Source: Schmidtea nova (taxonomy: Eukaryota). From it: a stretch of DNA of 63,468 nucleotides. The translations under genes and the position numbers were made by a program. Below the pieces are notes generated by a model, which was given only the letters and a program-made list of their open reading frames with translations, had not been told where the DNA came from and did no database searches. Of the stretch, positions 3,059-36,899 are shown piece by piece. Numbering within the stretch: the first letter of the stretch is position 1; each line of letters starts with the position of its first letter. The stretch is taken from the NCBI GenBank assembly GCA_044892505.1, contig CM097883.1, forward strand, positions 308,822,533-308,886,000, read 5' to 3'.

Positions 3059-3095
<37 letters not shown>

Positions 3096-7700: not shown

Positions 7701-7733
7701 TTATTTTAAAATATACATATATACATATATATA

Positions 7734-7853: not shown

Positions 7854-8355
7854 TTTGTAATTGCTGGGCAAATAATTTTCTCTGTCTTCGCCGTTTCTGC
7901 CCAATGCGCTTGCGTTTTTGGTGCGTATTCGCCGATGAGGTGGTTGAATTTGCTGCAGGAGCTGTCTCATTCCGACTTTCGATTAGATCTGCGACATCCG
8001 TGCCTATGGAATTCACAGTCTTCTTTTCTGATGTCCAAGCTTGGTACGTAACCGGACGGATTTGCTCTCTGAGCTCCTTCTCAATATATGAGGCAGTTAC
8101 GGAATGGAGGCATTTTCGGAGTTCTATCTTTGTAGCCTCCCATTCCATTTGATAATCGGCTGCCGTCTGTTGGGCGCGCTCGGTTTTACTGATTTGCTCC
8201 TTCATTCGGGCCGGAGCAAACCAGCTTTTGCGCAAGTATGCAATCTGTGCCTCTGCTTTGATCAATTGTGCCTTGAGGAGACCCACTTCCTTGTCCTGGG
8301 CCCTCCGAATCCGCCACATCTTCTCCAATTCTCTCTGCATCAAATCGGGGTTCAT
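7854..8355 (-). pseudogene. Truncated copy of LTR ORF-B
   Basis: Identical to 34861->34360, then runs into flanking MITE DNA (the track protein's CFLLVFINKIWLYIRQY tail is flank-derived). Confidence 0.8.
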
Positions 8356-8541
8356 TCTATAATTTATTTAGGATATTTACTCTATGATTTAATTATATGA
8401 AAATTAAAATCTGATCATAGGATTATTAGGTCACGAATATGAACTATTAAAAGGTGAAACAGAACAACAATAAAAAAAAAACAAAAATTCACTAATGAAC
8501 TATAATATTTTAATACAATTTCAACATTGGTTAATCAGTGT

Positions 8542-9021
8542 TCATCTCCGAAATAAACAATGCAATTCGCAGTTAATCGGTTTCTGACGCAGACGAGCCC
8601 AGGAAAACGCAGGTTGTCCTTTCCAGCATTCCTTGCCGAAGGGTTTTCGTGGCAGGAATTCGTGTAGGCCTAGTTGGCATAGTTCCCGACGAGGGATATG
8701 CCCCCAATAAATTACACGGCTTGTACGTCAATCTGTGTTCTTGATCAGTACGACAAGTCGGCCAAATTTGTTCGAGTACGGCCTTTGAGAAATCGGCCAG
8801 TTCGGTCCTCCTCGATAGAGTATTTGGTCGTGCCCTCCTGTCCATATCGAGAACGGGCATTTTCGGCCAAACCCCTGTCGCCACTTATACATTTGGCAGT
8901 TGAGGGTTCGCAATATTGATGCTGGTAGATCCTTGAGCTGCGAGATATTTCCATTTCGCAGATTCTCTCGCTCCATATTCCGTAGTTGCGTTAATTGATT
9001 TATAAGTTCAGCTGTCGACAT
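8542..9021 (-). pseudogene. 3' LTR copy of LTR ORF-A with a premature stop
   Basis: The 8730 SNP changes GGA to TGA after LIKNTD (97 aa vs 159 aa in the 5' LTR). Confidence 0.8.
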
Positions 9022-10393
9022 CTATATTACATTTATTGGATATGAAATATCTGAGAAAAGGGGGGAAAATTCGTTGATAATTTAATTATACTGTATATAA
9101 TCACAAAAGTTACTTAAAAATAAGATTAATTTTCTTTCTCTCCGCCGTGATCTACCACGGTCGGAATAAAGAGTTCATAATTAGTCCTGTGCTATATACA
9201 GCATTCAGGAATTTTCAAATTTAATCAAGATTTCCGCGCTATATACAGCGGTCGGATTATAACTTGGGAACCGCGCCATATACGACGATCGGCCTATTTT
9301 TAGTAACTAATTTAATTTGGATTTTCCGACGCATTCCATCGCGATCGGAATTTATCGATATTAAAATTTTGTAGGCGAGATGCTGATTTCGAATGAAATC
9401 GGACTTTGGACTACGTTGGATTTTCTCATTTCAGCGAAATTATTCAAATTTATTTTATTTGTTGCTCACTGCTTTTCCATGCGGGAGGTTCCATTTCGAT
9501 TCAATTTACTAAAATTTTAAGAGTGAGCATGCCCTACCATGGGGTGTCCCTCCTTATCAATCCGCCCTCCGCAATCTACATATTGGGCCCTCGACCTTCG
9601 TCCGTTGTGCAACCCAGAATTAAATAATTTGCAAATGGTCTGTACTAGACTAAAAATCCAATCAAATTTTCTAACTAAAATTTCACATCTAAGTTAAATA
9701 ATAAAAAGGTTGAACCGCCATGTGAGACCCTGAGGCCCCACGACGACGACTCGGACTCCCTCGCCGCGTGAGCAGCATAGGAAGTATAGCTATAATCAAT
9801 GAAAAAAATAAAATAACGTTTACATATAAACTTTTAATTAAATAAAAATCATGGGTACATCATATAAGATAACATAAAAAATTACTTCCGTACTTGAATG
9901 TGTGGTTCCTTGTATGAAATTCGGTTTTTCCAAAGAATTACTCAAATCAAAGTTTAGTCTTGATCTTGAGTGAAAAATAACGTCTAAGTCTGTGATTTTT
10001 GGATCGGTATTTATACTGATCCGTCTGGTTGGATTGACCAATCAGGATCAGGCCGTCCATCAAAGTATTTTTATTATTTTAATCTAATCTAAACATTATT
10101 TTGTTTCCTTTTCCGGTTTCTCGCTGGGTGGTCCTGATTTTCCAAGTAATTAATTAATTATTTGTACTATTATTTTATTTAATTCTATTTTTTCTCCTTT
10201 CAGGCCCCCTTTTGCGGTTGTTTACCGGTTTATTTTCAAAATTTCCTTTTACTGAAAATTTATCAATTATTATTTGTCGTTTTATTGTTATTTTTAATTT
10301 GTTTTTCTTGCTATTTTTATTTTTATTATTTCTTTATTGTTTCATGCTTTTGTTCGTTTTATTGTGTTTTTAGGTGATTTGGCGGGCCCAACA

Positions 10394-10413
10394 TCACCCG
10401 GGGACCCCTAAAA
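10394..10413 (-). promoter_or_regulatory. Candidate polypurine-tract position (atypical)
   Basis: Minus strand ttttaggggtccccgggtga directly abuts the TGTTGGG start of the 3' LTR; G-rich but not pure purine. Confidence 0.4.
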
Positions 10414-10596
10414 TTGCGTCCCGCAATTAATTATACATAAATACTTATATTCATCATCCATAAAAAGTTTTATAAAGTTATACATGCAAAGAAAAATCAC
10501 ATAAGGTGATCGAATTTATACATATCATAAAGTTTGTCATTAAATAGTCAAAATGTAATGATTTGTCACAATAGTTCGGTAAGTTTATCATAATGT

Positions 10597-11166
10597 TTAT
10601 ACAATTTGTTCGATCGTCTGGCTCGCTTGGGGTTGAGTTCGGGTCCTCTCGTTGATCATTTGTAGCTCGTAGTGGGTTTGAATGTGGTTGAGATGGCTCC
10701 TTATTCGTTTTTGAGATCGGTTATCTCGTCTGGAGGTTTGGTTATAGATTTTCTGCTTTTGTTTTAGGATTTTTATTCTATATGAGGCGATTAGGATTGT
10801 GATTGCGATGATAGTTGTGCTGACTGCTAGGATTATGATGATTGCTATGATCCATTTCTCTTGATATTCTATTTCAGCTTGGGATAGGCTTTTTATGGGT
10901 TCTCTACCTTCTTTCAGGATTTTTCGGGTTTCTTCTAGTTTCAGTTGTTGGTTATCGAAGATTTGTTGGATTTGATGGTCTTGATTGTGAGGGTATTTCT
11001 GTCGGAATTCGTTGATTTCTTTAATTACTTCTTCGATTAGGCTGTCTACTTTCTGATAGGTTTTGTCGGGTAGAACTCGTAATTGGGTTTCGGTTAGTTG
11101 TAGATCTTCTCTCTGTAGGGTAATGGTTGTTAACCATAGGAGTGTTGCTATTGCGAGCTTTCTCAT
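10597..11166 (-). CDS. 189-aa putative type I membrane protein (signal peptide, helical ectodomain, TM, basic tail)
   Basis: First ATG at 11166 gives MRKLAIATLLWLTTITLQ; TM segment WIIAIIIILAVSTTIIAITILIASY is followed by RIKILKQKQK. Confidence 0.75.
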   Translation of the reverse strand: MRKLAIATLLWLTTITLQREDLQLTETQLRVLPDKTYQKVDSLIEEVIKEINEFRQKYPHNQDHQIQQIFDNQQLKLEETRKILKEGREPIKSLSQAEIEYQEKWIIAIIIILAVSTTIIAITILIASYRIKILKQKQKIYNQTSRRDNRSQKRIRSHLNHIQTHYELQMINERTRTQPQASQTIEQIV

Positions 11167-11241
11167 CTCTTTTATACATCGGTCAATACAGCTTGACACT
11201 TTTTATTTTACATAATTTATTTACACTTGGTTTCCGCACAT

Positions 11242-12303
11242 TTATACAAGGGTTTCGTTGGGTTCGTGAAAACCTTCGTCTTGAGGTTCCACTTGATTTA
11301 TGGGGAGTGGCATCCATATTACCGTGCTCCTCCACATTTCGACTTCTTCTCGGTATGTGTGGGATATCTGGATCTCTTCATCTAATAAGTATTCCAGATA
11401 GTTCGCCTGTTCTGTTAGGGTTTCAATTTGTTTTTCTAGTTCTGCCAATTTTTTCTCTCTCTCTTCCTTCTCCATCATTTCGGTTACTGCTGCTGTGATA
11501 CTTGTTTCTTTTATTGGTATTGGTTTTTCTGCCAACTTCTTTCTCAGTTCTTCGTTTTCTTTTGTCAAATTTGTTATGTTCTCTTCATAACTCTGCCTCG
11601 TTTCTTCCAGTCTTTCTTTAGTTCTTTTTAATTCTATTTTCTTCTGGGTGATCACTCCTTGATATCCATTTATGTCTCTTTTCATGTTTTCTTCCTTGTG
11701 ATTCCACATTCCGGTCAGCATACCTTTTAATTGTTCTTGATTGGCTAAATCTTCTCCCATTCTTTGTACTTGATAAGTTAATTCTTTTATTTTCTTGGCT
11801 TGTTCTCTGATAAATTGTTGTCTTTCTTTACTCCATATTTTTTTTGACGCTTCTTGACTGATCTTTTGCCCTAATTCCTCTTTTAATTCATCGATCTCTT
11901 TAAACAGTTTCCAATCATCGCTGTACGCTGTTCGTTCTATTATCTCCCTTGCTTCCTTGTAAGAGTCTTTCGCCTCTTTCTTCCAATATCTTGCTTGTTC
12001 TGTGATTGACTGAATCTTATGGTCTGTTTTTATTTGTTGTCTATCCCTATCCTCTCGTCGCTCTTTCATCATCTCTTTGTAGTATTCGTTTTGTTGTCTT
12101 AGCAGTTTGTAGACTTCTTCTATTTTTTCTCGACTTCTTTGATTCGTTTTCTCGGCTTCTCTTAGTGCTTGGGTTTGTCTTTCCAATTCCTCCTGTTTTC
12201 GATAATAGGCATGAATCCATATCCCAATCCGCTCCATGTGATTTCTGATCATTTCGTCTTGATGTGCTGTTACTTCTTGTAAGGTTACTTCTATATTTCC
12301 CAT
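11242..12303 (-). CDS. 353-aa coiled-coil protein of unknown function
   Basis: Intact ORF on the element strand, E/K/Q/R-rich with heptad-like pattern, acceptor-like tatAG two nt before the ATG. Confidence 0.75.
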   Translation of the reverse strand: MGNIEVTLQEVTAHQDEMIRNHMERIGIWIHAYYRKQEELERQTQALREAEKTNQRSREKIEEVYKLLRQQNEYYKEMMKERREDRDRQQIKTDHKIQSITEQARYWKKEAKDSYKEAREIIERTAYSDDWKLFKEIDELKEELGQKISQEASKKIWSKERQQFIREQAKKIKELTYQVQRMGEDLANQEQLKGMLTGMWNHKEENMKRDINGYQGVITQKKIELKRTKERLEETRQSYEENITNLTKENEELRKKLAEKPIPIKETSITAAVTEMMEKEEREKKLAELEKQIETLTEQANYLEYLLDEEIQISHTYREEVEMWRSTVIWMPLPINQVEPQDEGFHEPNETLV

Positions 12304-12416
12304 TTCTATAATTACAGATAAAAAGAATATTTAATCATTTTTTATTTTTATTGTTTTTGATTATTTGTTAATTCATATTGTTTCTATACATTTTATTTAC
12401 ATGGTTACTTCCTTCA

Positions 12417-13793
12417 TTACGCCAACCATCCTTTTCTGTCTGTTTTCTCAGGCCTCTCCATCTCTATGTATAGCGTGTCTGCATATAGTCGCTCCCATAG
12501 GTTTTCTTGCCTTATAAACATTGGTTCTCCTGCTGCTAGTCCGCATTCTGTTGTTGGTTTTTCGCTCGTACTCGTATGTTTGTCTGTTTCAAAGAACTTT
12601 TCTACTGGTTTTCCCATACTTTTGATTCTTATAATGACTCCTACTTTCAAGGGCCATTCTATTAGGTCATCGTATTCTCCTTTACATAGTGAGAAGAATA
12701 TTGACACGTGTGTTCCTTGTCCTCTTCCGTCTCCATTTGGGTATACTTTCAATCTTATTTTAACCCCGTTTTTCCATAAATAAAATGGTGGGCTTATTAC
12801 TGCTGTTTTCGTCATATTTCTGGCTTCTGCTAATTTGTCTCTGAAATCAGTTACTTTCCATAGGTAAGGTGCGATTGGTAAGTCCCTTCTTTCGTCAATT
12901 TCTCGTATTAATTGATTATATTGTATTTTCATTCCTTTTCCTAATTCTTCTATGGCTATTATTTTCCTTTCCATTCTTTCGCGAGTTAGTTCAAACTGCT
13001 CTCTTGTTTCTAGTAGTAAACTCATCATTATTTTATGTGATTCTACTTCTTTTTCTAATTTCTGAATTGTCCGTTCCGTTTCTTTAGTCGTTTCGTTTGT
13101 CATTTCCACATGCGTTAGTGCTGCTTCTTCTAGGTGTTGTTTCATTGATTGCCGCGTCCGCTTTTCTTTGCATCCCTGTTTGTTATATGGGCATTCTCTT
13201 GGCCTTTCGGTACATAGTTTCCAATGTTCATGTAATTTTATTTCTTCTGTTATTTCACAATTGTTTGGACATTTACTTACATATTGTCCGCATACTTTCT
13301 CCTCTGTTATATTCAAGTGTTCTTCTTCGATTTTTCTCCTTGTTTCTCGGGCTTCACAATACTCGCATGCGATTTCTTCTTCTTTACATTCTTCCTTGTG
13401 TTGTTCTCTCTTCTTTAGAATTATTGTCTGTTGGCACTTCTCGCATTCGGTTCTTTTCTCCTCGCACTTTTCCATATGGTTTTCTAGATTACTTATTTGT
13501 CCTTGCCATGTACAAGGTGTATTTACGCACTCCGTTGTGGTGCTCATAATTTCTCTTTGGGTTGCTTTGTCCGTTCTGGTTTCGTCCAACGCTATTCCTC
13601 CTTCTTTACATTCTGGGCATGTTGTTATTCCTGTTACATCTAATTCTTGTATACATTTTGTACATATTCTACATCCACATATCGTTTGTCTGGGTTCTCG
13701 TAGTAAATTGTTACATTTTCCGCATGTGAGTCTCTTGCTCCATTTTCTGTTTTCTAGTCTCAAAATTTCGATTATTCGTTCTTCTCTGTCCAT
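12417..13793 (-). CDS. TRAF-family protein (RING, TRAF zinc fingers, coiled coil, MATH/TRAF-C domain)
   Basis: RING CGKCNNLLREPRQTICGCRICTKC...CPEC; zinc fingers CVNTPCTW...HMEKC and CPYNKQGC...H; MATH YLWKVTDF...SPPFY...LKVYPNGDGRGQGTHVSIFFSLCKGEYDDLIEWP (TRAF2/3/5-like). Confidence 0.93.
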   Translation of the reverse strand: MDREERIIEILRLENRKWSKRLTCGKCNNLLREPRQTICGCRICTKCIQELDVTGITTCPECKEGGIALDETRTDKATQREIMSTTTECVNTPCTWQGQISNLENHMEKCEEKRTECEKCQQTIILKKREQHKEECKEEEIACEYCEARETRRKIEEEHLNITEEKVCGQYVSKCPNNCEITEEIKLHEHWKLCTERPRECPYNKQGCKEKRTRQSMKQHLEEAALTHVEMTNETTKETERTIQKLEKEVESHKIMMSLLLETREQFELTRERMERKIIAIEELGKGMKIQYNQLIREIDERRDLPIAPYLWKVTDFRDKLAEARNMTKTAVISPPFYLWKNGVKIRLKVYPNGDGRGQGTHVSIFFSLCKGEYDDLIEWPLKVGVIIRIKSMGKPVEKFFETDKHTSTSEKPTTECGLAAGEPMFIRQENLWERLYADTLYIEMERPEKTDRKGWLA

Positions 13794-13885
13794 TTTCTAA
13801 AATAATATATACATTCGACTTGTCATTTATTTTTGGTTTTTCTTGTTTTTATTTTTACATATTTACAGTTTTCCGCTTTATTTAT

Positions 13886-14242
13886 CTATGGCTCATTCGT
13901 TGAATCTGGTTCCGCTTCGTTGGTTAATCTATTTATTACCCAACTCATCCATCCTTCTTCGGATCCTTCTCTTTCTCCTCGTGTTAAATGGTTTATTTCT
14001 ATTGCTTGTCTTTGATTGGTGTTGCTTATCGTTTGATTTTCTCTGGTGAGTTCAGTTATCGCTCTTTGTTGTTCCTCTATTCTGTGTAATTGTTCGAAAC
14101 AGTTGTTATAACTTTCTGATAATAACATTTGTCTTTCCGCTAATTGGTTCTGTAATGAGTTGACTGTTCGTACTAATAAATCACATTGTGCTTTCCATCT
14201 CATAGCCATAGTTATTTCAGTTGTTTCGTCCTGTTCGGTCAT
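13886..14242 (-). CDS. 118-aa coiled-coil protein of unknown function
   Basis: Intact ORF between longer cargo ORFs, acceptor-like tttAG three nt before the ATG. Confidence 0.65.
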   Translation of the reverse strand: MTEQDETTEITMAMRWKAQCDLLVRTVNSLQNQLAERQMLLSESYNNCFEQLHRIEEQQRAITELTRENQTISNTNQRQAIEINHLTRGEREGSEEGWMSWVINRLTNEAEPDSTNEP

Positions 14243-14290
14243 TTTCTAAATTATATACATCATTTACTTTGTTTTTCTAGCTTTTTACAA

Positions 14291-14322
<32 letters not shown>

Positions 14323-14389
14323 ATCGATACCCATACTATTACGGTAATGCTTTGTTATTTACACTATTATTTACAGTCATAATCCGCCC

Positions 14390-17300: not shown

Positions 17301-17473
17301 ATTAGTATGAGTGCTAAGCATAATACTTCCATTTGGTAAGACACTCTTTCGGTTTCGTTTGTGGCAACTCTTGCTTCGGGTCTTTTTATTGTAATTCGTA
17401 TAGTTGGTGTTGTTTGCTTATCTATTACCTGGGGTTTTTTGTTTTCTGTTCCCTGTGTCTCTGTATGCAACAT
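14390..17473 (-). CDS. 1027-aa membrane protein with six Cys-containing FN3-like repeats and two TM anchors; probable frameshifted continuation of the polyprotein
   Basis: Repeated motif CW-x(n)-I.I.GL...Y.IC-x13-15-C. TM segments LIGLGILTATIPVIIALSAIWI (about 16064-16135) and VIGLISIGILIAYGIMTTSMIIYW (about 14573-14645). Overlaps the end of the 4633-aa ORF. Confidence 0.8.
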   Translation of the reverse strand: MLHTETQGTENKKPQVIDKQTTPTIRITIKRPEARVATNETERVSYQMEVLCLALILIIIKRLEEGIEIETMTITEVEDTQNTNIKCWARNNEEIGVNEIRKSRKPTTNKVIKVSEVKADKMYKLCLLEKETNKKGTTKCKTFQPGEVIKFGRRTRKRNKQIKRKINITLEIKEIEPNVKGVCWRKYEKETNERKTPQCRTSTGATTIQIKGLESKQTYEICLVKKNDQITINDLECGIYTTSSGTRTKTLTRKNKRRQRNKGKPKYTTTFKNNKQPISQEVTTKSEKKTSATLTLWKIENKTLEICWILVQKYIRRQSRECRKTNKEIKIERLQFNSEYEVCTIEKTDALENQQERCETYYTPVNATSKGITRKLEFRELSQTNEQMDAEKTITDPQAKWTPEEVIKEVKRKQEEREQLMRKLKGQYGIMFNQSEPIQTDENKEIKELIGLGILTATIPVIIALSAIWIRKINPKKSVTQWTNRDSTSHGVEMLEEEAREEPKKKEAKSGKLGINNKDKEIKEIKGEEKKYERRTRSLPQSSKWLGLTIILTLINREEATNLQAGIKIVNVQEVEKICWNREDEPIGKDNPLKCIVRKSNQDIVRIEGMDRGIMHRICIIGKEKKSGLPKTVVCQKYETPRLEWYKVKPTKKEIKNTIDRPATQKENTTNKPREGERSTNKTRERISPQQECVCIALILAMSKRIDKGIIIEQMAITIRKTSSNKLCWGTYNEPRKEYQVQTSDESRTNKEIEIQEIQMNEEGSICIWERGIQEGIEHCKTFQKGEILKFDEEELTKTERTLTLTGLDQTVKGICWTKHNPEGEEDNLTHCKEIKNKEKVELKKMEVNRTYAICTFTRKGSEKPECGLYQISEKLQQQIEPGNVENRTKENNVKQLLNRHWSTQEVMNKVKNQIQKERKPEAQTQNEIKANQNKGETNRGKTVIGLISIGILIAYGIMTTSMIIYWRYRKRNKATAIQWPDIKIMKQRIEIPEEIQKEFQRRTKGKEFWKQIEDDERYEEKTIMMV

Positions 17474-29400: not shown

Positions 29401-31326
29401 TGCTTCTTTTTCTACTTCTTTATCTTTTTGTACTATTTCTTTTCGACTTTCGTTGTCGGCTGGATTCGGGTCTATCGAATTCATTTCCAGTGTGGTTTCT
29501 TCCTCGCGAGTGTCTGTTTGGTTTATTGCTCTTAACATGTTAATTCTTAGAGGTTGTCGCTCTCTTTCTTGCTGTTTTTGTTCATCCTCTCTTTGTATTC
29601 TTGCCCATTCCTGAGCGTGTCGTGCTTGACTTTCTCGATTCAATCGTTCGTTTTCGCTTTCTATTTTTCTCATCATGCTAATTTGCTGTTGATTGGTTTG
29701 CGGATTTCCTCTCGTCGTATTGTTTATAAGTTCCGTCAATCTTTGGACTTCTTGCATTAAATGTATTTCTTTGGGGGTGGTTTTGTTCTGATTATTGTTA
29801 TTATTGACTTGTTGGTTCCCATAATCTGGTCGGTTTACGGTATTTGCTTGATTTCCGTAATTTGGTCGGTTCCCATTACTCTGCCAGTTTCCTCGTTGAT
29901 TACTTTTTTGTCCGCAATTTCTTGAATAGTGACCAGGTCGTCCGCAATTAAAACAGATTATTGTAGAACATCTGCTTTCCGAGTGTCCTTTGACTCCACA
30001 TTTTCCGCAATTCAAATTTTGATAGCATTCTTGCTGCCAGTGTCCCAACTTCCCGCATGTTTTACATTGTTTTGTTTGTCCTTGAGGGTTGTAATTGTTT
30101 TGGTTTCCAAAGTTCTGCACTTTATTTCCTTCATTCCTTCGTTGAGGGGGTGGTCGGTTTAATTGTTGCGAATTTGGAATGTGATTGTTGAGATTTACCT
30201 CTGGTTCGGTTTGTGCTGTGTCCATGGCTAAATAAATTCTGCCCTCACTTCCTATCATATGCAATTCAAATCGGTTAGCTGTTTCTAACGCTTGATCTAT
30301 GGTTTTGCATCCTTGACATCCTACTTGCGCTCTTATGTCGGGTCTTCTTAGTCCTCCTATGAAGATAGCTGCCATTAACTCCTCGTTTATTGGGCCTCCA
30401 TCCTTGAATACCGATTTTGCTAATTTTTTCAGTTCGCTCGCGTATACCGCATTAGATTCATTCATCTTTTGTTTCCTCATTGAGAATTCTATGAATGCCT
30501 CGCTTAGCACTTTATTTATTCCAAATGTTTGTTGGAAAAAATCCTTTATCGCTGTCCAGCTTGTAGGTGGATTGGTACCATTTTTCGCTTCCAAATATAG
30601 GTCCAATGCACTATCTTTCAAATATAACTGAATTCTGCTTACCGTTGTTTCAGCTTTCCATTTGCATACTTCCACGAATATGCCAAATTCTTTTAAAAAG
30701 GTTTCTAATTTACTCGCATCTCCGTTAAACGGTTCTCCTGAAAATTTATCCTTTATTTCTTCTCTTGGTTCACCCATTTCAATTCCGCTGTCTTGAGTTA
30801 TTTTACTTTCGTTTCCTCTTGTTTCTAGTTCGTTGTTATGTTCGTCTTCCGTTTTACTCGAGCTTGAATCGCTTTCTGTTTCTCTTATTCCTTCGTTATC
30901 TGATATTATACTTTCGTTATCACTCGCGTTGATTTCTATCTCTGGTTCTACCTCGTTTTCTACTTCTTCGATATTATCGTTGTTAGTTTCGTCGATTTCT
31001 CCTTCTTGTTCTATCTCGTGTTCTATTTCTTCGATATTATCGTTATTAGTTTCGTCGCTCTCTATTTCACTTGCTTGGTTCTCCTTGGGTTCGGCTTGGT
31101 TTTCTTTGTTACTTGAGCTGTTGCTTACTATTGACAATTTATCGTTTTCGGTAATCGATTTATCTCTTATTATTTTCCTCGATTTACTCCCTTGTGGGTT
31201 ATCTTTGCCGACTTTCTGCTTTTTTGTTGATTTTGTTGTAGTACTAGTTTTGTCTTTTTTATTATTGTTGCTACCGACTTTCTTTTCCGTTGGCTTTACT
31301 ACGACACTCTTTGCTCCTTTTCTCAA
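17425..31326 (-). CDS. 4633-codon Gag-UBL-Bcl2-Env-PR-RT-RNaseH-IN-ankyrin polyprotein
   Basis: Single uninterrupted frame with the motifs listed as sub-features. The track start is TTG; the first ATG is at 30777. Confidence 0.95.
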   Translation of the reverse strand: MRKGAKSVVVKPTEKKVGSNNNKKDKTSTTTKSTKKQKVGKDNPQGSKSRKIIRDKSITENDKLSIVSNSSSNKENQAEPKENQASEIESDETNNDNIEEIEHEIEQEGEIDETNNDNIEEVENEVEPEIEINASDNESIISDNEGIRETESDSSSSKTEDEHNNELETRGNESKITQDSGIEMGEPREEIKDKFSGEPFNGDASKLETFLKEFGIFVEVCKWKAETTVSRIQLYLKDSALDLYLEAKNGTNPPTSWTAIKDFFQQTFGINKVLSEAFIEFSMRKQKMNESNAVYASELKKLAKSVFKDGGPINEELMAAIFIGGLRRPDIRAQVGCQGCKTIDQALETANRFELHMIGSEGRIYLAMDTAQTEPEVNLNNHIPNSQQLNRPPPQRRNEGNKVQNFGNQNNYNPQGQTKQCKTCGKLGHWQQECYQNLNCGKCGVKGHSESRCSTIICFNCGRPGHYSRNCGQKSNQRGNWQSNGNRPNYGNQANTVNRPDYGNQQVNNNNNQNKTTPKEIHLMQEVQRLTELINNTTRGNPQTNQQQISMMRKIESENERLNRESQARHAQEWARIQREDEQKQQERERQPLRINMLRAINQTDTREEETTLEMNSIDPNPADNESRKEIVQKDKEVEKEAEKGEETEINQEERRKIWKKGMMVIMPNDHMFRFQYNAKEKVEILFNKVNQMIPGVTKLPREAFLQIGDAPSVKLKLTDTWENVGVTETKRNVMRIKEIKPEEIPPPIRHETRIRRIFEGKMIRRRLKEIDELGKKMGKVEVIEDKSEPTPEIDKNEPEPTENIQGETNQIAHINMLRNTTREFSDEEEDSDISSLAGDILNESEDENKEREVIKTSEPTQIKVDEIQKLLDNSLEVIYNEEFMDKKQYRKFMKALLQMNYKEWLQDREVDMLNRYVGKLIEEPLLNYTISIIINTSTPRIWIKTPFTDDIYRWVEDRLGSSYKNKFIYSQNRLVKKRTHLVETGIWPGEITLLSICDEKEEENLQEVAREANTCFEKRIKPRLEYEKERVLRKNLNSLIEQIIPQVKKHRKELMRSEYEKLKRCIECIRDTSHTRWSQISHDKLIAKMGKTMFRQGKITDLKISVELPNEDTKEIEVVADCTIKELINVINETLVQREPEDEWEDDIIIQYNEHVLWDHDERRLYKIGIWDNHQTIHVSRMDDTPRETAKDEKRERERRKEVVRKLQQIIDIYRNWRIRPEWENVLEELNLNRRIRTPGEKQWNEKGKCWEPKEGEYEEEYKRGIEDDCEPEIGRVCMVTRKATPIDLDGPETAAMWLEREKQKTEEFVEILKTNAHGKRKVIKGLADFFVVNGEDITCLRKVAKAIAEYKRVNEWCPEQLDHVIRKWRNQEFSQEIPQKVHLRIIYPNKDKEELWVGIAEKIRDIKKKLRYEPPFHLQHQGRSLDNSLEIGITPAQLDLMNTLTVEAIAGQPLKRKEENHKPHGSISTPSPMKSVLTPGTSSRRSETTPRGTRERTPPQPYDVDEILTDSDDMIEELTELTREKDDNIFERIQELPTTIQVTNTGEAEVEEEIIIEEVNDLTEDETRGANVENVQLTQEMERWLEERANEPRDVTEETGRATRFVETGTGMDKRPRGRPKTDPATVVVRNKDEKRQDQWELCLRKLNKIAEMKEKETTPICQGEEWISKTIMEILAIIDPELRKYWRLTEISEKAKSLHSAIAPILPEFIKEKTKSNHLDWQGTTTLIKKLTEGAETDNKYVIAIAYTIYNLLTLSRGRPKPTALERHIKNTAKIIAREIEPYVINKGGWETFIKTNQKKTQAKNMKKKFEKILEELEKEQTGTGNAKSSMNLSSIIMMMLIWMISTDSATAFKVFDCDQMKLGEKYSLRGTEQCKDATPVELQKIKKEQWYHVYQEAELIKTMVNECKVQKTRFAFYCGRGHYSAIVMPGTEREPIVLQGEDCEALFKHGEVTTRDKIKIRGKPGMMMQQTYYVAGRITGGEGYCQGETYPIFGVPATNLVVMDTYIVELKSYEAFFEPTTGEMKTLSMCKIDRSMCQTGMSTLVYKPKVNECQLQLLQGAKFDEIQGKTFQEEDDDDKDRAKHLKEALENKRQLKPDHREKRIEMRATPTVLITTNQDVGMRFIKGKATLKCSTTVYETNYPGIYVSKQEVPNAKPKIDTMDIKLHLYVNNKMDFLFHRGQASLQKVYYNLINNDCILNREILKTKLAVAITNPDSAMPLLPLREGHFGRVVGEAMYVYICEKTHASLAATTQLKPGTCTNELEIDYKGKVRYVQPVTRIINPPGFEPNPFNCSNAYGPLYQKPDGKWVMFPGRSEVIAPREFELMQLSKDRQFSDVDVSNNGIYSPKDLEAARQNILFPARREALLSNIVTITGGTDYRERPNYELLLSPAHFKKATENMMKAMWGRFLIFGQMMAGILGVILIIQIVRVIITQMLACFDIYKREKKVNWKMVVGFLPFLAKTMVLHGHSKDIHRIKRLLKILAKMKGTDEEVGRKFKKIRNDEQARQQLKKERKGLWERMKGYKTQNDSSDDDDDDDDYKGGQVYKNQAPQYIEKNPADAWKCYAPPPTMYQEPLQGGKNNTMQMMPMTNVYPMIPEDYKMRRCRSVDPQGDTHTIAVMSSNTGPVLTTTIEINGREIEAMIDTGANISAIDIKWIPQEQRREIERTNVHVIACSKEVVEVAGRWWVKIRHLNTEIDTYVAVIPALSVPCIIGTDLMPALFKEIVIDLGTMRLKDRTGQICAIEAKVTSSKQMIIPARKEKICYVKIDPTIQGDMIFEPSKRFEKRKALPMARGLVNINDDGEIPINVVNFDEEDKIIYENERLGKLTPMMDIELPIEGAEKDKEPTWNIDSELLNEDQKKQLEKLLIEYKDIFAASDLDLGTCDVTLHTIPLTDETPIALRPYKLAEAQKAVAEAEVKKMLDAEVIEPSCSPWQFPVVMVKKKDGTQRFCIDYRRLNTVTKRDTYPLPDINEMLLTLQGAAYFTSLDLKSGYWQIKMKEEDKEKTAFTIGRDLYQFRKMPFGLTNAPASFQRCMNFVTHGIKQCMVYIDDLLIYSSTFEQHIQDIRDVFVRLRQWKLKLKPSKCDWAKEKVTFLGHIVSAKGKEPDPRNIDKVKECPVPKTIIQIQEFLGLCGYYRKFIKDYAGIAKPIQELVKKDVSFIWGDEQQTAFETLRDKLITAPILVHPDFKKPFLLATDASGYAAGAVLGQYDDEGKERVIGYYSRTFKKHEKNYSVTEREALAIILAIKHFKYLLWGHIICITTDHQPLVWLGQHKETSSRLMRWAMQLQEYSPDIKFKSGKANANADCMSRLTFPELTDPDVQRICVLIAEDLDFSELKKDQQEDKELGQIIEFLTSRNMEAFKDNKELKEHIGKYQHRYIINKGWLLIQDGEKRLMCLPENRRKEIMIQYHDGKLGGHMSEKKTINRMRQKYYWRTMEEDIKEWIKNCLTCATRKDSGKKWKNPLQPMPIPAEPMTTIAMDVIGPLPESLNGNIYILVITDYLTKFPEAFAMQDQKAKTVAKILVEEICCRYGTPKQILTDQGTNFMSELLNEVTNYFRIAKLRTSPYHPQTNGQTERFNGTLIRMLSNYVSRHQTDWDEYIKLCLMAYRMSIHAATKLSPFQLMYGRECNMPIDLEYQPPLSQYMEDDDYVTKFKERMQEIWKTAELNIKFYQESYKDLHDQKKNVKANDLKPGDWVIIETPEIIPGTVKKLQRPGRGPYEIIYKKDNNVKVKLINRPLIRPIYVNTCRCKKVPKTITTTPENRIITRSQTARINMLRANATEDDKEEIRQKEIRNKEIILKAREIMGRWHVKDEAGISRDIRHIISRYAQGLPTEPIISELLEKIPEILLLKDVGGQPALHNAIECKNMERAKEFLKIAKETNQNLDIGNREQETPLMTAAIHQADKEMIDLLIKAHFSWTERDREDKTVLNHVIWSSHQPMLKYIIANCTWEIDELVKRDIIKEAIKIGKCNTIRKLIKWKRPEDDTWVLDINEVYSEGQNALLRYLLKFTCDQKTLLTLLDRGNINITKNEEEYKFDKEKEALFNKIRKWCAKPLDKLITYKDINNFNEKYQTIVSEYEELVKILNHPEKCKQVLEKKERESNKKLTPLFKAEAPYQARLDAIQEKAKELLPEFENSKHALEILGALVEKVHAYAKGTYNGNDIVIIKKEMPVTFLLPKDGIMPIHRALRNGKDRKVMEIARVMLNCGSNMNMIDEKGDTLMVFAARAKTKTKVLEELYKAGAGLTGKTDKDNSILDVALLTHNWEMVNFIKTVPNQEEIDHLTDSVKKPSVLAMMNNVELTESILTWINPNTNEPAFRINKFTEHNQNWCIRSALITYKWPEILKMFMERKDLRITTSPKEEKYTGKWKELMKTYINNWIKAKKEILEYKSTNKVIPEQVETQEFEASNLTTLAYAKLIEEINVEDDIFDEPGGDDNTDSDDGNNSENSNDHEPPDKEENERKDKKRDKEEKKSEDEKQRDEDGEQGKNVQGDKNDTQRTGYKSTIKPFFKPELLLLTMIITLINPSQGMTCEERAIIQIKNAKGIERVCWSKKDKITEQNSPMDCRISKHEQEIIEINDLDLNTWYKICTVRKQKHPRSHNTIACCIQRHREQKTKNPR
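17470..17755 (-). other. Polyprotein C-terminus: signal-like hydrophobic segment plus first FN3-like repeat
   Basis: ELLLLTMIITLINPSQG then RVCW...IIEINDLDLNTWYKICTV...IAC, paralogous to the unit after WLGLTIILTLIN in the 1027-aa ORF. Confidence 0.65.
18400..19740 (-). other. Ankyrin repeat region C-terminal to integrase
   Basis: GGQPALHNAI, QETPLMTAAI, DKTVLNHVI, IMPIHRAL, KGDTLMVFAAR and DNSILDVAL, spaced as ankyrin repeats in two clusters. Confidence 0.85.
20030..21100 (-). other. Integrase (HHCC zinc finger, DDE core, GPY/F)
   Basis: YHDGKLGGH...CLTC; MDVIGPL; TDQGTNF; HPQTNGQTERFN; GRGPYEI. Confidence 0.95.
21370..22680 (-). other. Reverse transcriptase and RNase H
   Basis: RFCIDYRRLN, LDLKSGYWQI, MPFGLTNAPASFQR, YIDD (22153-22164); TDASG, EREALA, TDHQPL. 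Confidence 0.97.
23130..23436 (-). other. Retropepsin aspartic protease
   Basis: IEAMIDTGANIS (DTG at 23371-23379) and CIIGTDLM. Confidence 0.93.
23900..25827 (-). other. Class III fusion-type (chuvirus/herpes gB-like) envelope glycoprotein, about 640 aa
   Basis: Signal-like IIMMMLIWMISTDSATA, then FKVFDC...YSL...C, FYCG, GYCQGETY, DCILNREIL...NP...GEAMYVYIC, CTNEL...YVQPVTRII, GIYS, and TM WGRFLIFGQMMAGILGVILII. This matches the cysteine/motif pattern of chuvirus-like glycoproteins as I recall it. Confidence 0.8.
25931..26322 (-). other. Bcl-2-like domain
   Basis: BH2-like IEPYVINKGGWETF; degenerate BH1 region DNKYVIAIAYTIY; helical pattern of the expected length. Confidence 0.7.
26974..27180 (-). 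other. Ubiquitin-like fold 3
   Basis: LRIIYPN...EKIRDIKKKL...FHLQHQGRSLDNSLEIGI...TLTV parallels ubiquitin TIENVKAKI...LIFAGKQLEDG. Confidence 0.55.
27781..28020 (-). other. Ubiquitin-like fold 2
   Basis: LKISVELPNEDTKEIEVVADCTIKELI...IIIQYNEHVL...LYKIGIWDNHQTIHV. Confidence 0.65.
29113..29340 (-). other. Ubiquitin-like/UBX-like fold 1
   Basis: MMVIMPNDHMFRFQYNAKEKVEILFNKV...LTDTWENVGV...VMRI. Confidence 0.45.
29914..30777 (-). other. Gag capsid-like domain plus three CCHC zinc knuckles
   Basis: FNGDASKLETFLKEF...LYLKDSALDLY...RKQKMNES...FIGGL; CKTCGKLGHWQQEC, CGKCGVKGHSESRC, CFNCGRPGHYSRNC. Confidence 0.93.
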
Positions 31327-31936
31327 GGGGATTACTTTTGTATACTCAATTTTCCTGTTCTATCTCTTATCGTTTTCTGATTCTTCTTGCTTGATTGATT
31401 GATTTGATTGATTTGTATATCTAAAATACAAAGGTCCTCAACGATACATTATTGTTATCGTCGCGCTTTTATTCCCTTTCTTTCGGGATTACTTATTACT
31501 GGGTTTTCATTATTTCCCAATTCCCAGATTCCCCTTTATTTTTAGTCTATTTAAATTATCTATAGACTGGTCACAATTATCTATTTACGTCGTAATAATT
31601 ATCTATGTTTTATCAAATCGATTACTTTTCCCACAGTTTCCCAATTATTGGTCGCTCGAGCGCTCTAATTCCCTGAGTCTTTCTGACTCGTTTATCATTA
31701 TTTTATCATTTCTATTCATTATTCCCTGCTAGCAATCGTTTTACTCATTCTGCCGGTGGCTCCGGTCAGCTCAAATCTCTACTATTCTCCTTGCATGCTT
31801 TACTTAAGGTTGCATAATCAGCTTTACTCGCATTCTCTTAACTACTAGTGCGCACTACTCTAAATTTCGTCGACGATTATACTATGGGTCTATATTCCCT
31901 CTGTTACTATTTATCCGGATATCTCTATAATTCACT

Positions 31937-32191
31937 ATGGCTCTTCTGGCCTCAATTTTATATCTCACATGGCTCTATTGGCCTCATTTTACTATCTCAA
32001 ATGGCTCTATTGGCCTCAATTTAATCTCTCAAATGGCTCTATTGGCCTCAATTTAATCTCTCAAATGGCTCTATTGGCCTCAATTTAATCTCTCAAATGG
32101 CTCTATTGGCCTCAATTTAATCTCTCCAATGGCTCTATTGGCCTTAATTTAATCTCTCAAATGGCTCTCTTGGCCTCAATTTAATCTCTCC
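31937..32191. repeat. Tandem array, 8 x 32 bp
   Basis: Unit atggctctattggcctcaatttaatctctcaa starts at 31937, 31969, 32001, 32033, 32065, 32097, 32129 and 32161. Confidence 0.95.
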
Positions 32192-32232
32192 ATAACGCCT
32201 AGCTAGGTCATTCAATAAGGCTCATTGGCCTC

Positions 32233-32527
32233 AACCCTTTTTTTCAAGGGACAAACCGCTAATAACCCTTTGTTTCAAGGGACAAATCTCATAACCCTTT
32301 GTTTCAAGGGACAAATCTCCTAACCCTTTGTTTCAAGGGACAAATCTCCTAACCCTTTGTTTCAAGGGACAAATCTCCTAACCCTTTGTTTCAAGGGACA
32401 AATCTCCTAACCCTTTGTTTCAAGGGACAAATCTCATAACCCTTTGTTTCAAGGGACAAATCTCATAACCCTTTGTTTCAAGGGACAAATCTCCTAACCC
32501 TTTGTTTCAAGGGACAAATCTCCTAAC
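32233..32527. repeat. Tandem array, about 10 x 29 bp
   Basis: Unit taaccctttgtttcaagggacaaatctc(c/a) with period 29 from 32263 to 32523, plus a variant first unit at 32233. Confidence 0.95.
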
Positions 32528-33003
32528 TTTGCTTAACCGGTTAATTATAATTCTTAACTTCGCTAGCGATTAATATTTCTCAGCTGAGTTATAACTACTT
32601 CTATGCGAGCTGACTATGCACCTTTTATTATTTCAACACTATCGTTTATTTCTTTGTTCTATTATAACTATTTCCTGATCCGTCTGCTTCAACTTTTTAT
32701 TTATTTTTCTCTATGCGCGCTTTACTCCATCAAGATTTCCCTATTTCTCTCCCCAACCAAAATATACAAAAAGATCGCGTTGGTCCATTAATGCAGGATG
32801 TGGTGATCAATCACATCACAAAAACTTTCCAACATTTGCGATGGGCCCCTTTCTATACACCCTGACTAGGTTGATCAATCGGTACTTCCCAATGGATTCT
32901 TATCGGACTACTTTGCAGTAGCTCAAAAATTATTTATATATGACAATTGTACCCATGATTTCCCCATTAATAAATCCATAAAATTCCATTCAAATTTTAT
33001 TTA

Positions 33004-33465
33004 TTATAAATATACAATAATTTTATCGTCTATCATCAGGTTGCACATAGGACATAGGTCGCACTTGCTGGCACATATTTTACAAAAACGAAAATGTCCA
33101 CAAGGTAAAAACATAATTTGTATCTCGCTATCCTCACATATATAGCACTGTCGGTATTTTTTCGCTGCTTCTACCCCCTGCGCCCTCCATCGATTGTATG
33201 TTGGGGTTAATCGTTGTTCTATTTGCCTGCACTTAATGTTTAGTTCTGCATTTTCTAATCGTGCTCTGTACCATTTGTAGCGGGTCTCTATGTCGATTTT
33301 TCTTGTCCTTTCTGTTATCTTTATTAATTCATCTGTTTCCTCAGTCTGTGTTGTGGGTTCCTGAAATTCAATTTCTCTAAATCGGTTTATTTTCTTGCCA
33401 ATCGTTTCTAATGTTTCGCTTTCTGTGTTGAGAAATTCTTCAATTTCTTTCAGTTTTTCCTCCAT
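33004..33465 (-). CDS. 153-aa coiled-coil plus C-terminal IAP-type RING finger protein (no BIR domain)
   Basis: CYICEDSEIQIMFLPCGHFRFCKICASKCDLCPMCNLMIDDKIIVYL parallels the cIAP/XIAP C-terminal RING and ends at the C-terminus. Confidence 0.85.
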   Translation of the reverse strand: MEEKLKEIEEFLNTESETLETIGKKINRFREIEFQEPTTQTEETDELIKITERTRKIDIETRYKWYRARLENAELNIKCRQIEQRLTPTYNRWRAQGVEAAKKYRQCYICEDSEIQIMFLPCGHFRFCKICASKCDLCPMCNLMIDDKIIVYL

Positions 33466-33772
33466 TTACTAAATAAATAATCGTTTTAACTCTGTTATTT
33501 TTATCGTTTTAAGGTAGTAATATGTTTCGTTTTGTATCTTTTAATATTTAACTCCCCCCGTGTTTCCGAAAATTGTCGTCCCGACAAATTATCTATGCAT
33601 GCATTTTAATTTTTAAATTCACTTTTGTTCACTGCCGTGTTGTTATTTTAATTTTTATACAATAATTTAAATTTAATTATAACCTTTCTGTTTTTTATTA
33701 AATTAATTGACCCGAGCATTTCAAACCTCTCTGCAGATTTTACATTTACATTTTTCCGATAAAACGAAGTTT

Positions 33773-33790
33773 ATCCCGGCTGAGCCCCCA
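33773..33790 (-). promoter_or_regulatory. Primer binding site, tRNA-Pro type
   Basis: Minus strand TGGGGGCTCAGCCGGGAT matches the classical tRNA-Pro PBS TGGGGGCTCGTCCGGGAT at 16/18. Confidence 0.85.
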
Positions 33791-34264
33791 AATTTATGCT
33801 GGGTTCATGGAGGGGTTAGATGAAAAATGTTCTAACAATGACTAGGGATCCCTCATCCATGATCATGCATAAAATTGCAATTTTACACTCAAGCGCCCTT
33901 GATTATTTCCCTATATAATCAAGTTGGTGATGCGCAGGGTGGTTAAACAATGATGGGCAGGTGAGCACTATCGCTAGTACTACTCCCCATTTATGTTTAC
34001 GGGTCCATTGCTGCCGTTAGAAGGACTTATGCTTTAATCATCCACTTATGTATTCCGTGTTAATCTTTCAGAAAATTTATTTTTATCATTACCCAGTCTG
34101 CGAGAAGTATCTCAACGAATGCTCGCTTAATTATTTAATTATCTCTATTCGGTATTTGGTAAAATAAATTTACACTTTTGTTCTATCTTTATCTAATCAT
34201 TGGTAAAGTTAATTAAATCAATTTAAATGAACGATAAAATTCTTAAGCCAATACAACAATTTAT

Positions 34265-34861
34265 TTAATTTTTAATTAGTTCGGTAAAAACTCCCGCCGG
34301 AGGAAAAATCTCCGTCAATAATGCCTCCCCGGTCATCTGATGTAGACCATCGACTTGGATTTGTAATTGCTGGGCAAATAATTTTCTCTGTCTTCGCCGT
34401 TTCTGCCCAATGCGCTTGCGTTTTTGGTGCGTATTCGCCGATGAGGTGGTTGAATTTGCTGCAGGAGCTGTCTCATTCCGACTTTCGATTAGATCTGCGA
34501 CATCCGTGCCTATGGAATTCACAGTCTTCTTTTCTGATGTCCAAGCTTGGTACGTAACCGGACGGATTTGCTCTCTGAGCTCCTTCTCAATATATGAGGC
34601 AGTTACGGAATGGAGGCATTTTCGGAGTTCTATCTTTGTAGCCTCCCATTCCATTTGATAATCGGCTGCCGTCTGTTGGGCGCGCTCGGTTTTACTGATT
34701 TGCTCCTTCATTCGGGCCGGAGCAAACCAGCTTTTGCGCAAGTATGCAATCTGTGCCTCTGCTTTGATCAATTGTGCCTTGAGGAGACCCACTTCCTTGT
34801 CCTGGGCCCTCCGAATCCGCCACATCTTCTCCAATTCTCTCTGCATCAAATCGGGGTTCAT
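34265..34861 (-). CDS. LTR ORF-B, 198 aa, coiled coil plus basic NLS-like patch
   Basis: Intact ORF containing KRKRIGQKRRRQRK; tatAG one nt before the ATG. Confidence 0.65.
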   Translation of the reverse strand: MNPDLMQRELEKMWRIRRAQDKEVGLLKAQLIKAEAQIAYLRKSWFAPARMKEQISKTERAQQTAADYQMEWEATKIELRKCLHSVTASYIEKELREQIRPVTYQAWTSEKKTVNSIGTDVADLIESRNETAPAANSTTSSANTHQKRKRIGQKRRRQRKLFAQQLQIQVDGLHQMTGEALLTEIFPPAGVFTELIKN

Positions 34862-35047
34862 TCTATAATTTATTTAGGATATTTACTCTATGATTTAATT
34901 ATATGAAAATTAAAATCTGATCATAGGATTATTAGGTCACGAATATGAACTATTAAAAGGTGAAACAGAACAACAATAAAAAAAAAACAAAAATTCACTA
35001 ATGAACTATAATATTTTAATACAATTTCAACATTGGTTAATCAGTGT

Positions 35048-35527
35048 TCATCTCCGAAATAAACAATGCAATTCGCAGTTAATCGGTTTCTGACGCAGAC
35101 GAGCCCAGGAAAACGCAGGTTGTCCTTTCCAGCATTCCTTGCCGAAGGGTTTTCGTGGCAGGAATTCGTGTAGGCCTAGTTGGCATAGTTCCCGACGAGG
35201 GATATGCCCCCAATAAATTACACGGCTTGTACGTCCATCTGTGTTCTTGATCAGTACGACAAGTCGGCCAAATTTGTTCGAGTACGGCCTTTGAGAAATC
35301 GGCCAGTTCGGTCCTCCTCGATAGAGTATTTGGTCGTGCCCTCCTGTCCATATCGAGAACGGGCATTTTCGGCCAAACCCCTGTCGCCACTTATACATTT
35401 GGCAGTTGAGGGTTCGCAATATTGATGCTGGTAGATCCTTGAGCTGCGAGATATTTCCATTTCGCAGATTCTCTCGCTCCATATTCCGTAGTTGCGTTAA
35501 TTGATTTATAAGTTCAGCTGTCGACAT
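35048..35527 (-). CDS. LTR ORF-A, 159 aa, unknown function
   Basis: Intact ORF in a GC-richer island of the LTR; tatAG immediately before the ATG. Confidence 0.6.
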   Translation of the reverse strand: MSTAELINQLTQLRNMERENLRNGNISQLKDLPASILRTLNCQMYKWRQGFGRKCPFSIWTGGHDQILYRGGPNWPISQRPYSNKFGRLVVLIKNTDGRTSRVIYWGHIPRRELCQLGLHEFLPRKPFGKECWKGQPAFSWARLRQKPINCELHCLFRR

Positions 35528-36899
35528 CTATATTACATTTATTGGATATGAAATATCTGAGAAAAGGGGGGAAAATTCGTTGATAATTTAATTATACTGT
35601 ATATAATCACAAAAGTTACTTAAAAATAAGATTAATTTTCTTTCTCTCCGCCGTGATCTACCACGGTCGGAATAAAGAGTTCATAATTAGTCCTGTGCTA
35701 TATACAGCATTCAGGAATTTTCAAATTTAATCAAGATTTCCGCGCTATATACAGCGGTCGGATTATAACTTGGGAACCGCGCCATATACGACGATCGGCC
35801 TATTTTTAGTAACTAATTTAATTTGGATTTTCCGACGCATTCCATCGCGATCGGAATTTATCGATATTAAAATTTTGTAGGCGAGATGCTGATTTCGAAT
35901 GAAATCGGACTTTGGACTACGTTGGATTTTCTCATTTCAGCGAAATTATTCAAATTTATTTTATTTGTTGCTCACTGCTTTTCCATGCGGGAGGTTCCAT
36001 TTCGATTCAATTTACTAAAATTTTAAGAGTGAGCATGCCCTACCATGGGGTGTCCCTCCTTATCAATCCGCCCTCCGCAATCTACATATTGGGCCCTCGA
36101 CCTTCGTCCGTTGTGCAACCCAGAATTAAATAATTTGCAAATGGTCTGTACTAGACTAAAAATCCAATCAAATTTTCTAACTAAAATTTCACATCTAAGT
36201 TAAATAATAAAAAGGTTGAACCGCCATGTGAGACCCTGAGGCCCCACGACGACGACTCGGACTCCCTCGCCGCGTGAGCAGCATAGGAAGTATAGCTATA
36301 ATCAATGAAAAAAATAAAATAACGTTTACATATAAACTTTTAATTAAATAAAAATCATGGGTACATCATATAAGATAACATAAAAAATTACTTCCGTACT
36401 TGAATGTGTGGTTCCTTGTATGAAATTCGGTTTTTCCAAAGAATTACTCAAATCAAAGTTTAGTCTTGATCTTGAGTGAAAAATAACGTCTAAGTCTGTG
36501 ATTTTTGGATCGGTATTTATACTGATCCGTCTGGTTGGATTGACCAATCAGGATCAGGCCGTCCATCAAAGTATTTTTATTATTTTAATCTAATCTAAAC
36601 ATTATTTTGTTTCCTTTTCCGGTTTCTCGCTGGGTGGTCCTGATTTTCCAAGTAATTAATTAATTATTTGTACTATTATTTTATTTAATTCTATTTTTTC
36701 TCCTTTCAGGCCCCCTTTTGCGGTTGTTTACCGGTTTATTTTCAAAATTTCCTTTTACTGAAAATTTATCAATTATTATTTGTCGTTTTATTGTTATTTT
36801 TAATTTGTTTTTCTTGCTATTTTTATTTTTATTATTTCTTTATTGTTTCATGCTTTTGTTCGTTTTATTGTGTTTTTAGGTGATTTGGCGGGCCCAACA

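Follow-up and report, generated by a model that had tools for sequence, protein, structure and literature searches.

A giant Ty3/gypsy element of Schmidtea nova, very probably of the Burro clade, with an in-frame env, an FN3-like membrane tail and accessory genes under purifying selection

The window analysed here is a stretch of 63,468 nucleotides of Schmidtea nova (assembly GCA_044892505.1, contig CM097883.1, positions 308,822,533 to 308,886,000). It contains a giant Ty3/gypsy element bounded by long terminal repeats (LTRs). The element reads on the minus strand, and coordinates are positions in the window. It is a young, multi-copy element, damaged in this copy, that encodes one polyprotein and seven accessory proteins. 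It very probably belongs to the env-carrying Ty3/gypsy elements of the Burro clade.

Structure of the giant element and its insertion site

Comparison of the window with itself reveals a direct repeat (7854-10393 and 34360-36899) of 2,540 bp, with an offset of 26,506 and a single mismatch at 8730/35236. An earlier note on this DNA had described LTRs with this offset and one mismatch, and the comparison bears it out. The LTR-LTR divergence is 0.0004 and the insertion is very young. The following features were recognized, in part by comparison with nine sister copies from the same genome.

33797..36899, minus strand: 5' LTR, 3,103 bp, TG...CA ends, matching ends in sister copies
36521-36514, minus strand: TATA-like box in the 5' LTR
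33773..33790, minus strand: primer-binding site for tRNA-Pro, located 6 nt downstream from where the LTR ends
31937..32527, no strand: pair of tandem arrays within the leader, 29 bp x 10 and 32 bp x 8
10394..10418, minus strand: conserved stretch at the position of the polypurine tract, a 25-mer identical in 9/9 sister copies
7854..10393, minus strand: 3' LTR, distal end deleted
36900..37250, no strand: upstream half of the host repeat that holds the insertion (68 matches from 40 scored of 314 candidates; empty sites known)
7700..7853, no strand: downstream half of the same host repeat, starting 35 bases past the insertion point in 9/9 empty sites

The 3' LTR ends 563 bases early. Also missing on that side are the target-site duplication and some 35 bp of host repeat. 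A few bases are common to both sides of the deletion junction, which would fit a microhomology-mediated deletion. Sister LTRs measure 3,116-3,210 bp, so that the full element comes to about 29.6 kb, the restored size that had been proposed. The primer-binding site pairs at 18/18 positions (33790-33773) with the 3' end of host tRNA-Pro (15 genomic bases plus CCA), again as claimed. A 22-base motif holding the complement of this site has 899 exact matches genome-wide, and ARAGORN calls a tRNA-Pro at 4/5 genes in the single locus scanned. The tRNA-Pro genes were seen in a tandem array with a 308-bp period.

All large open reading frames (ORFs) are located on the minus strand. The earlier note had the strand right; its count of nine or more intact ORFs did not hold, since the tally is eight genes, one polyprotein and seven accessory ORFs. 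In this copy a short frameshifting deletion near 17,465, overlooked at the time, splits the polyprotein gene into ORFs of 4,450 and 1,027 amino acids (aa), and the 3' LTR copy of a 159-aa ORF is stopped by the single LTR mismatch. The frame is open across the place near 17,465 in 9/9 sister copies, showing that the two ORFs are one gene. No listed contig piece spans the break with at least 31 bases on either side, so an assembly error could account for this small deletion alone. Between the polyprotein and the next ORF lies a run of 27 A (14291-14317). Its length varies from 5 to 30 bases in the sisters, which argues for slippage and not for a poly(A) scar.

Sister copies and selection

The 17-base LTR start has 598 exact matches in the genome and the LTR/primer-site junction 309, a motif likely common to one sister family also; controls gave 0. 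The giant element is thus multi-copy, with hundreds of copies. RT (reverse transcriptase) matches at least 96% identical made up 40/40 of those scored, from 848 candidates. The nine sister copies are all the pairs of LTR starts 26.1-27.2 kb apart, picked by eye among the first 100 listed matches. All nine are colinear with the window element end to end, their LTR pairs are 99.0-100% identical, and in 3/9 the complete frame is open for 5,665-5,685 codons. Matching 4-bp target-site duplications flank eight of them. Before the ninth stands the polypurine-tract motif in place of host DNA, so that it forms a tandem arrangement sharing an LTR.

Ratios of nonsynonymous to synonymous substitution (dN/dS) were calculated pairwise against the window copy and pooled over the nine sister pairs, with three non-coding segments as controls. 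Pooled values are 0.01-0.36 in 19/19 coding segments, as compared with 0.85-1.00 in 3/3 controls; the seven accessory ORFs lie at 0.10-0.22. Every ORF of the giant element, cargo included, is shown to be under purifying selection.

The polyprotein

30778..31359, minus strand: AUG-free open frame, 194 codons before the first AUG; dN/dS 0.36 in 5 pairs
17425..30777, minus strand: first part of the polyprotein, measuring 4,450 aa when counted from its first AUG, with Gag and its 3 CCHC knuckles, possible ubiquitin-like modules, BCL2-like segment, Env, protease (PR), RT, RNase H, integrase (IN), ankyrins, signal peptide and first fibronectin type III (FN3) domain
25903..26337, minus strand: putative helical domain, degenerate and BCL2-like, that immediately precedes the Env signal sequence
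23980..25830, minus strand: Env, with an internal signal sequence, a predicted class III (gB/chuvirus-type) fusogen ectodomain and a membrane anchor
20098..23421, minus strand: PR (DTG), RT (YIDD), RNase H and IN (HHCC, DDE, GPY) in Ty3/gypsy order, catalytic motifs intact
18028..19860, minus strand: ankyrin-repeat region; Pfam Ank_2, E 3.4e-11
14390..17509, minus strand: polyprotein, second part, out of frame in this copy, with duplicated cassettes of signal peptide, three to four predicted FN3 domains and membrane anchor

Pfam places in this order CCHC knuckles, Monjiviricetes fusion protein, protease, RT, RNase H, integrase and ankyrins. Env therefore stands in frame between Gag and the protease in a single giant polyprotein. 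The PR-RT-RNase H-IN order, the TG...CA LTRs, the tRNA primer site and the short target duplication of the sisters are those of Ty3/gypsy elements. At the AUG-free frame, 643 nt contain no ATG in any frame, as compared with 8.8 expected. AUG-free extensions are present in two sister families as well, and the 194-codon stretch likely extends Gag at its N-terminus from a non-AUG start.

Env is preceded by a helical segment whose BH2-like GGW motif is kept in three families. Direct searches with this segment are weak or empty. Another family of this genome has Pfam-positive Bcl-2 domains in the same place directly before Env, and the segment aligns with these at E 1.6e-4 among 103 ORFs. On this positional and transitive support we treat it as a degenerate BCL2-like domain. 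Ubiquitin/SUMO-like and dUTPase-like modules gave no significant match, and conserved segments are found at the expected places.

Env is recognized by Pfam as Monjiviricetes_fusion (E 1e-69) and has a dN/dS of 0.05. A structure model of residues 1471-2270 is confident across most of Env. With this model, Foldseek retrieves herpes glycoprotein B (gB) with E 8.8e-12 and chuvirus G with E 3.9e-34, and Env is predicted to have a gB-type (class III) fold. Env is 97% identical to that of another family of this genome, called family C here, with Gag and RT at 61% and 92%. Such a difference suggests that the env module was exchanged between families, possibly by recombination of co-packaged elements.

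The tail that follows the ankyrins is internally duplicated (28-29% identity, E 1e-31 to 1e-39) and has a dN/dS of 0.25. A sequence search among 1.84 billion representatives found 0 relatives of it. Of three tail domains, two were modelled with confidence and resemble fibronectin type III (E 2.1e-6), so the tail repeats are predicted to be FN3 domains. In a family with the layout of Burro1, too, FN3-like domains (E 1.8e-6 and 7e-10) close the polyprotein, and a membrane ORF follows.

Accessory genes and candidate splice acceptors

35048..35527, minus strand: 159-aa ORF inside the LTR, acceptor-like AG directly before its ATG; dN/dS 0.18 in 9 pairs
34265..34861, minus strand: ORF of 198 aa inside the LTR, resembling a coiled coil and holding a basic stretch, of no known family; dN/dS 0.10; 29% homologue in a sister-family LTR
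33004..33465, minus strand: 153-aa ORF in the leader with a C-terminal IAP-type RING; Pfam zf-C3HC4_3, E 3.4e-11; dN/dS 0.16
13886..14242, minus strand: 118-aa coiled-coil ORF; dN/dS 0.18; 52% homologue in a sister family
12417..13793, minus strand: intronless full-length TRAF of 458 aa (RING, zinc fingers, coiled coil, MATH); TRAF3, E 5e-24; dN/dS 0.15
11242..12303, minus strand: 353-aa coiled-coil ORF; dN/dS 0.11; homologues in two other families
10597..11166, minus strand: ORF of 189 aa whose start resembles a signal peptide, with one membrane helix by hydropathy; dN/dS 0.22

The RING of the 153-aa ORF matches that of XIAP/cIAP (E 8.6e-10), and no BIR domain was found by the Pfam scan in 9/9 ORFs of the element. 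For the 159-aa ORF, there was no Pfam match, no usable Atlas match and no known family. The 'Smc' motif in the annotation of Burro may correspond to the 353-aa ORF. Against 8/8 top-scoring other TRAF loci of the genome, the TRAF of the element reaches only 24-32% identity. It groups with the TRAF of family C at 100/98, and its join with a MATH domain located inside a polyprotein is weaker (85/83). The low identity together with the grouping suggests that the capture is old. TRAF/MATH loci are densely clustered on C2 at about 405-455 Mb, and several of the top matches have open frames of 417-486 codons, so these loci look intronless.

The four 3' ORFs are 87-147 bases apart, with an acceptor-like AG at each of the first three. 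More generally, an acceptor-like WTAG is found 0-4 bases upstream of 6/7 accessory AUGs, as compared with 5/89 non-coding ATGs. In other families YAG precedes 9/11 accessory ORFs, as compared with 210/1,619 background ATGs. The pattern makes it likely that the accessory genes are made from spliced RNAs; the predicted junctions of the window element would fall at 35528, 34863, 33469, 14246, 13797 and 12306.

Relation to Burro and to other families of the genome

The domain order of the element matches the published layout of Burro, which supports the suggestion of the earlier note that it is a Burro or a relative. An RT tree of 32 rows, made of unnamed relatives and genome copies, gives further support. 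The window family, family C and the family with MATH in the polyprotein form a 6-row clade at 100/100. The last of these has the Burro1 layout: MATH lies inside a 4,706-codon polyprotein, the LTR measures 3,966 bp, the tRNA-Pro site is the same and the RT is 89% identical. Family C has the gene order of the window element, a 5,089-codon frame and a 476-codon TRAF frame that was found many times among the TRAF matches.

With a 23.4-kb internal region and a 3.1-kb LTR, the element has the total of about 30 kb and the internal region above 20 kb that characterize Burro. The ankyrin and MATH/TRAF cargo is there too, TRAF being a separate ORF. The BIR domain listed for Burro1 in the review has no counterpart in the Pfam scan of the nine ORFs, only the IAP-type RING. 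The element also has the features of gB-type GAG-ENV-POL errantiviruses, i.e. a predicted class III Env between signal and membrane segments and several near-identical genome copies. It is likely a new family of Burro elements. The homology of the element and its AT-rich flanks would suit a dugesiid planarian as host.

Further families came to light. A compact gag-env-pol family has frames of about 3,440 codons, an LTR of about 760 bp and a downstream ORF weakly matching DEDD exonuclease (E 0.0024). Another has frames of about 3,060-3,080 codons in which a Pfam-positive Bcl-2 domain immediately precedes Env; many of 150 Bcl-2 matches sit in such long frames. A likely non-autonomous derivative keeps the RING, ankyrin, one FN3 and the coiled-coil ORF, and neither Env nor RT was matched in it. 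The gag-env-pol order is shared by ten database polyproteins (2,627-4,057 aa), among them proteins that have two or three protease domains or a cargo of ubiquitin and ankyrin. One of the ten is labelled bacterial and is likely a mislabelled contig.

Proposed mode of action and its alternatives

Taken together, the window probably holds a young, damaged copy of a multi-copy, env-carrying Ty3/gypsy element, likely of the Burro clade and likely working like a complex retrovirus. Transcription would start past the TATA box of the LTR, and tRNA-Pro would prime reverse transcription. The polyprotein would be threaded through the membrane of the endoplasmic reticulum (ER). Host signal peptidase would free Env and the FN3 cassettes, while the element protease would cut at recurring I/V-x-M/L sites between modules. 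The products would be capsid, fusogen, enzymes and surface proteins, and the Env signal sequence would stay on the BCL2-like domain as a tail anchor. Cleavage-like motifs are found at 6 places in the window polyprotein, with similar ones in two other families, and such processing appears quite probable. Each accessory ORF would be reached by splicing to the acceptor just before its AUG. TRAF, IAP-type RING, BCL2-like and ankyrin proteins would attenuate TNF/NF-kB signalling in cell death and immunity, and the host cell would survive; an anti-death role is slightly favoured. FN3 proteins would act at the cell or particle surface, and enveloped particles would travel from cell to cell. True cell-to-cell infection is a tentative suggestion to which we give somewhat less than even chances. 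In its anatomy the element fits the view of a complex endogenous virus: Env, with its predicted gB fold, is under purifying selection and there are seven accessory ORFs. Infectivity is inferred only.

A broader proposal would make the Burro clade working planarian complex retroviruses. In this proposal an RNA genome of about 27 kb would have seven accessory genes spliced from one LTR promoter, two of them in the LTR. Duplicated FN3 receptor mimics would be cut from a 5,700-residue polyprotein. Envelope swaps and TNF/TRAF rewiring would enable cell-to-cell spread, including to stem cells. We consider this set of claims doubtful as a whole.

Several points weigh against the retrovirus-like reading. 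No particle, transcript or protein was observed. The sisters share ancestry, so the nine dN/dS pairs are not independent. TM-scores of Env to gB are low (at most 0.26 over the query in the top ten, 0.28 at best), and the middle FN3 domain folded without confidence. The BCL2-like segment has no Pfam or PDB profile match and a best direct E of about 1.2, to Bcl-xL; its model has a pLDDT below 50 and its BH1 motif is degenerate. Two possible ubiquitin-like segments score E 0.7-0.9 or nothing. The acceptor rule was set after inspection and WTAG was widened to YAG after viewing the other families, and the count omits one ORF lacking an early AUG. A strict pattern found a conserved splice donor at the expected place in 0/3 family LTRs. 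The comparison with Burro is one of layout, drawn from published descriptions.

The same element could be purely intracellular, Env and FN3 serving particle assembly at the ER or local cell fusion, with nothing infectious outside. This would fit an element for which no particles were seen here. It would also fit BURRO1 of S. mediterranea, which is silenced by SMEDWI-2 and expressed in differentiated cells after its knock-down, according to the accessible part of PMC8532177. One Env per Gag in a single polyprotein may be an odd ratio for a virion as well. However, Env is as tightly constrained as Gag, its predicted gB-type fold is complete with signal and anchor, and env is nearly the same in two families. 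We regard the intracellular reading as possible but rather doubtful.

The accessory ORFs could also be resolved by spliced-leader trans-splicing of a polycistronic RNA instead of cis-splicing from the LTR. Spliced leaders are in use in flatworms, and the tight packing of the 3' ORFs, with their acceptor-like AGs, would suit such a process, as would the lack of a conserved donor under the strict pattern in the three LTRs. The flatworm spliced leader ends in AUG. This AUG would, however, be out of frame for 2/6 acceptors and be followed by an immediate stop after a third, and every ORF keeps its own AUG. Trans-splicing thus appears unlikely, and cis-splicing remains our preferred reading.

The cargo genes as recent neutral host captures hitch-hiking on the element are largely refuted and very improbable. 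TRAF, RING, BCL2 and FN3 families do occur in animal hosts and the genome holds many non-element TRAF loci; against this stand the dN/dS of 0.05-0.25 on all cargo, the divergence of the element TRAF and its grouping with that of family C, and the FN3 tail without relatives among the representatives searched. A chimera or assembly artefact of separate elements is hardly credible: this copy lacks a target-site duplication, bears two deletions and has the unbridged break near 17,465, yet a chimeric architecture is refuted by the colinear sisters with their matching duplications, the two flanks are two halves of one host repeat, and the gene order is repeated in a diverged family.

Other features of the window

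An ordinary 5-kb Ty3/gypsy element lies on the plus strand at 43050-48085. Its 308-bp LTRs are 99.7% identical, its gag/pol is broken into several ORFs and its RT is distant from that of the giant element. Three segments (58400-58732, 83-253 and 52177-52345) presumably represent fragments resembling GIY-YIG (Penelope-type) endonuclease ends. Foldback repeats are found at 663-7657 and 2518-3002.

Significance

The family adds testable detail to Burro elements: selection on every cargo gene, predicted acceptors usable as exact RT-PCR targets, and a predicted surface tail common to the Burro1-type family. Protein genes inside LTRs would be spread by every solo LTR. If the element is infectious, the size limit of reverse-transcribing viruses would rise to almost 30 kb, and planarians would have a native route for gene delivery. 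Element-borne TRAF and BCL2-like genes in many copies may make tallies of planarian 'host' TRAF/MATH genes too high; neither 'transpos' nor 'retro' occurs as a word stem in the accessible part of PMC7586133.

Comparison with known systems

Size, in-frame env and the TRAF, BCL2 and ankyrin cargo are already known for the class. The accessible part of the Burro review describes Burro/GYPSM1 as an element of more than 30 kb with a 4,873-aa ORF1, MATH, BIR, ankyrin and BCL2-like domains and env in frame between gag and pol (PMC6431247). The provirus hypothesis for Burro is already in print there, and gB-type GAG-ENV-POL elements are reported in flatworms, six of them in S. mediterranea, in the available text of PMC13524379. 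Neither the in-frame env nor the provirus idea is therefore new (PMC6431247; PMC13524379). The earlier note had supposed that the gene content was only partly described. Within the literature searched this stands for the FN3 tail and the LTR ORFs. That search turned up no mention of an FN3 membrane tail, of LTR ORFs under selection, of the pattern of acceptors or of an AUG-free extension; a Nature supplement may cover some of them.

As far as the accessible review text goes, the element resembles Burro1/GYPSM1 and Burro-2 to -4 of S. mediterranea and the Burro-like element of Dugesia tigrina in its size of about 30 kb and its multi-kb LTRs. Common to them as well are the giant polyprotein with Gag, three CCHC knuckles, a BCL2-like domain (putative here), env before protease, RT, RNase H, IN and ankyrins, and the TRAF/MATH cargo, tandem repeats and accessory ORFs (PMC6431247). 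It differs in its frame of 5,665-5,685 codons, as compared with 4,873 and 5,140 aa. TRAF is here a complete separate gene downstream of pol, whereas Burro1 has a MATH domain in the polyprotein and D. tigrina an upstream ORF. The IAP-type RING comes without the BIR listed for Burro1. The FN3 membrane tail, LTR ORFs and acceptor-led accessory ORFs go unmentioned in that part of the review (PMC6431247).

Smed_errantivirus_1-6, errantiviruses of Platyhelminthes of the HSV/gB type (HSV standing for herpes simplex virus), share the Gag-Env-Pol order and the gB-type Env. The printed Env segments of Smed_errantivirus_5 and _6 have motifs in common with this Env. Identity to _5 is about 40%, counted by eye, which makes it a different family. 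The available text lists no LTR or primer site for the six, and 'splic', 'accessory' and 'polyprotein' are absent from its main text (PMC13524379).

In complex retroviruses such as foamy viruses, lentiviruses and mouse mammary tumour virus, many acceptors feed accessory genes, ORFs reach into the LTR and proteins modulate the host. The giant element would work like them if our reading holds. Unlike them, it has a Ty3/gypsy RT, a predicted class III fusogen, an env fused between gag and pol and a genome about three times longer. Large DNA viruses carry modulators of apoptosis and TNF signalling, namely viral BCL2, IAP, ankyrin and decoy-receptor proteins. The putative functional kit of the giant element is in outline like theirs, and it is here borne by a reverse-transcribing element and partly encoded in one polyprotein.

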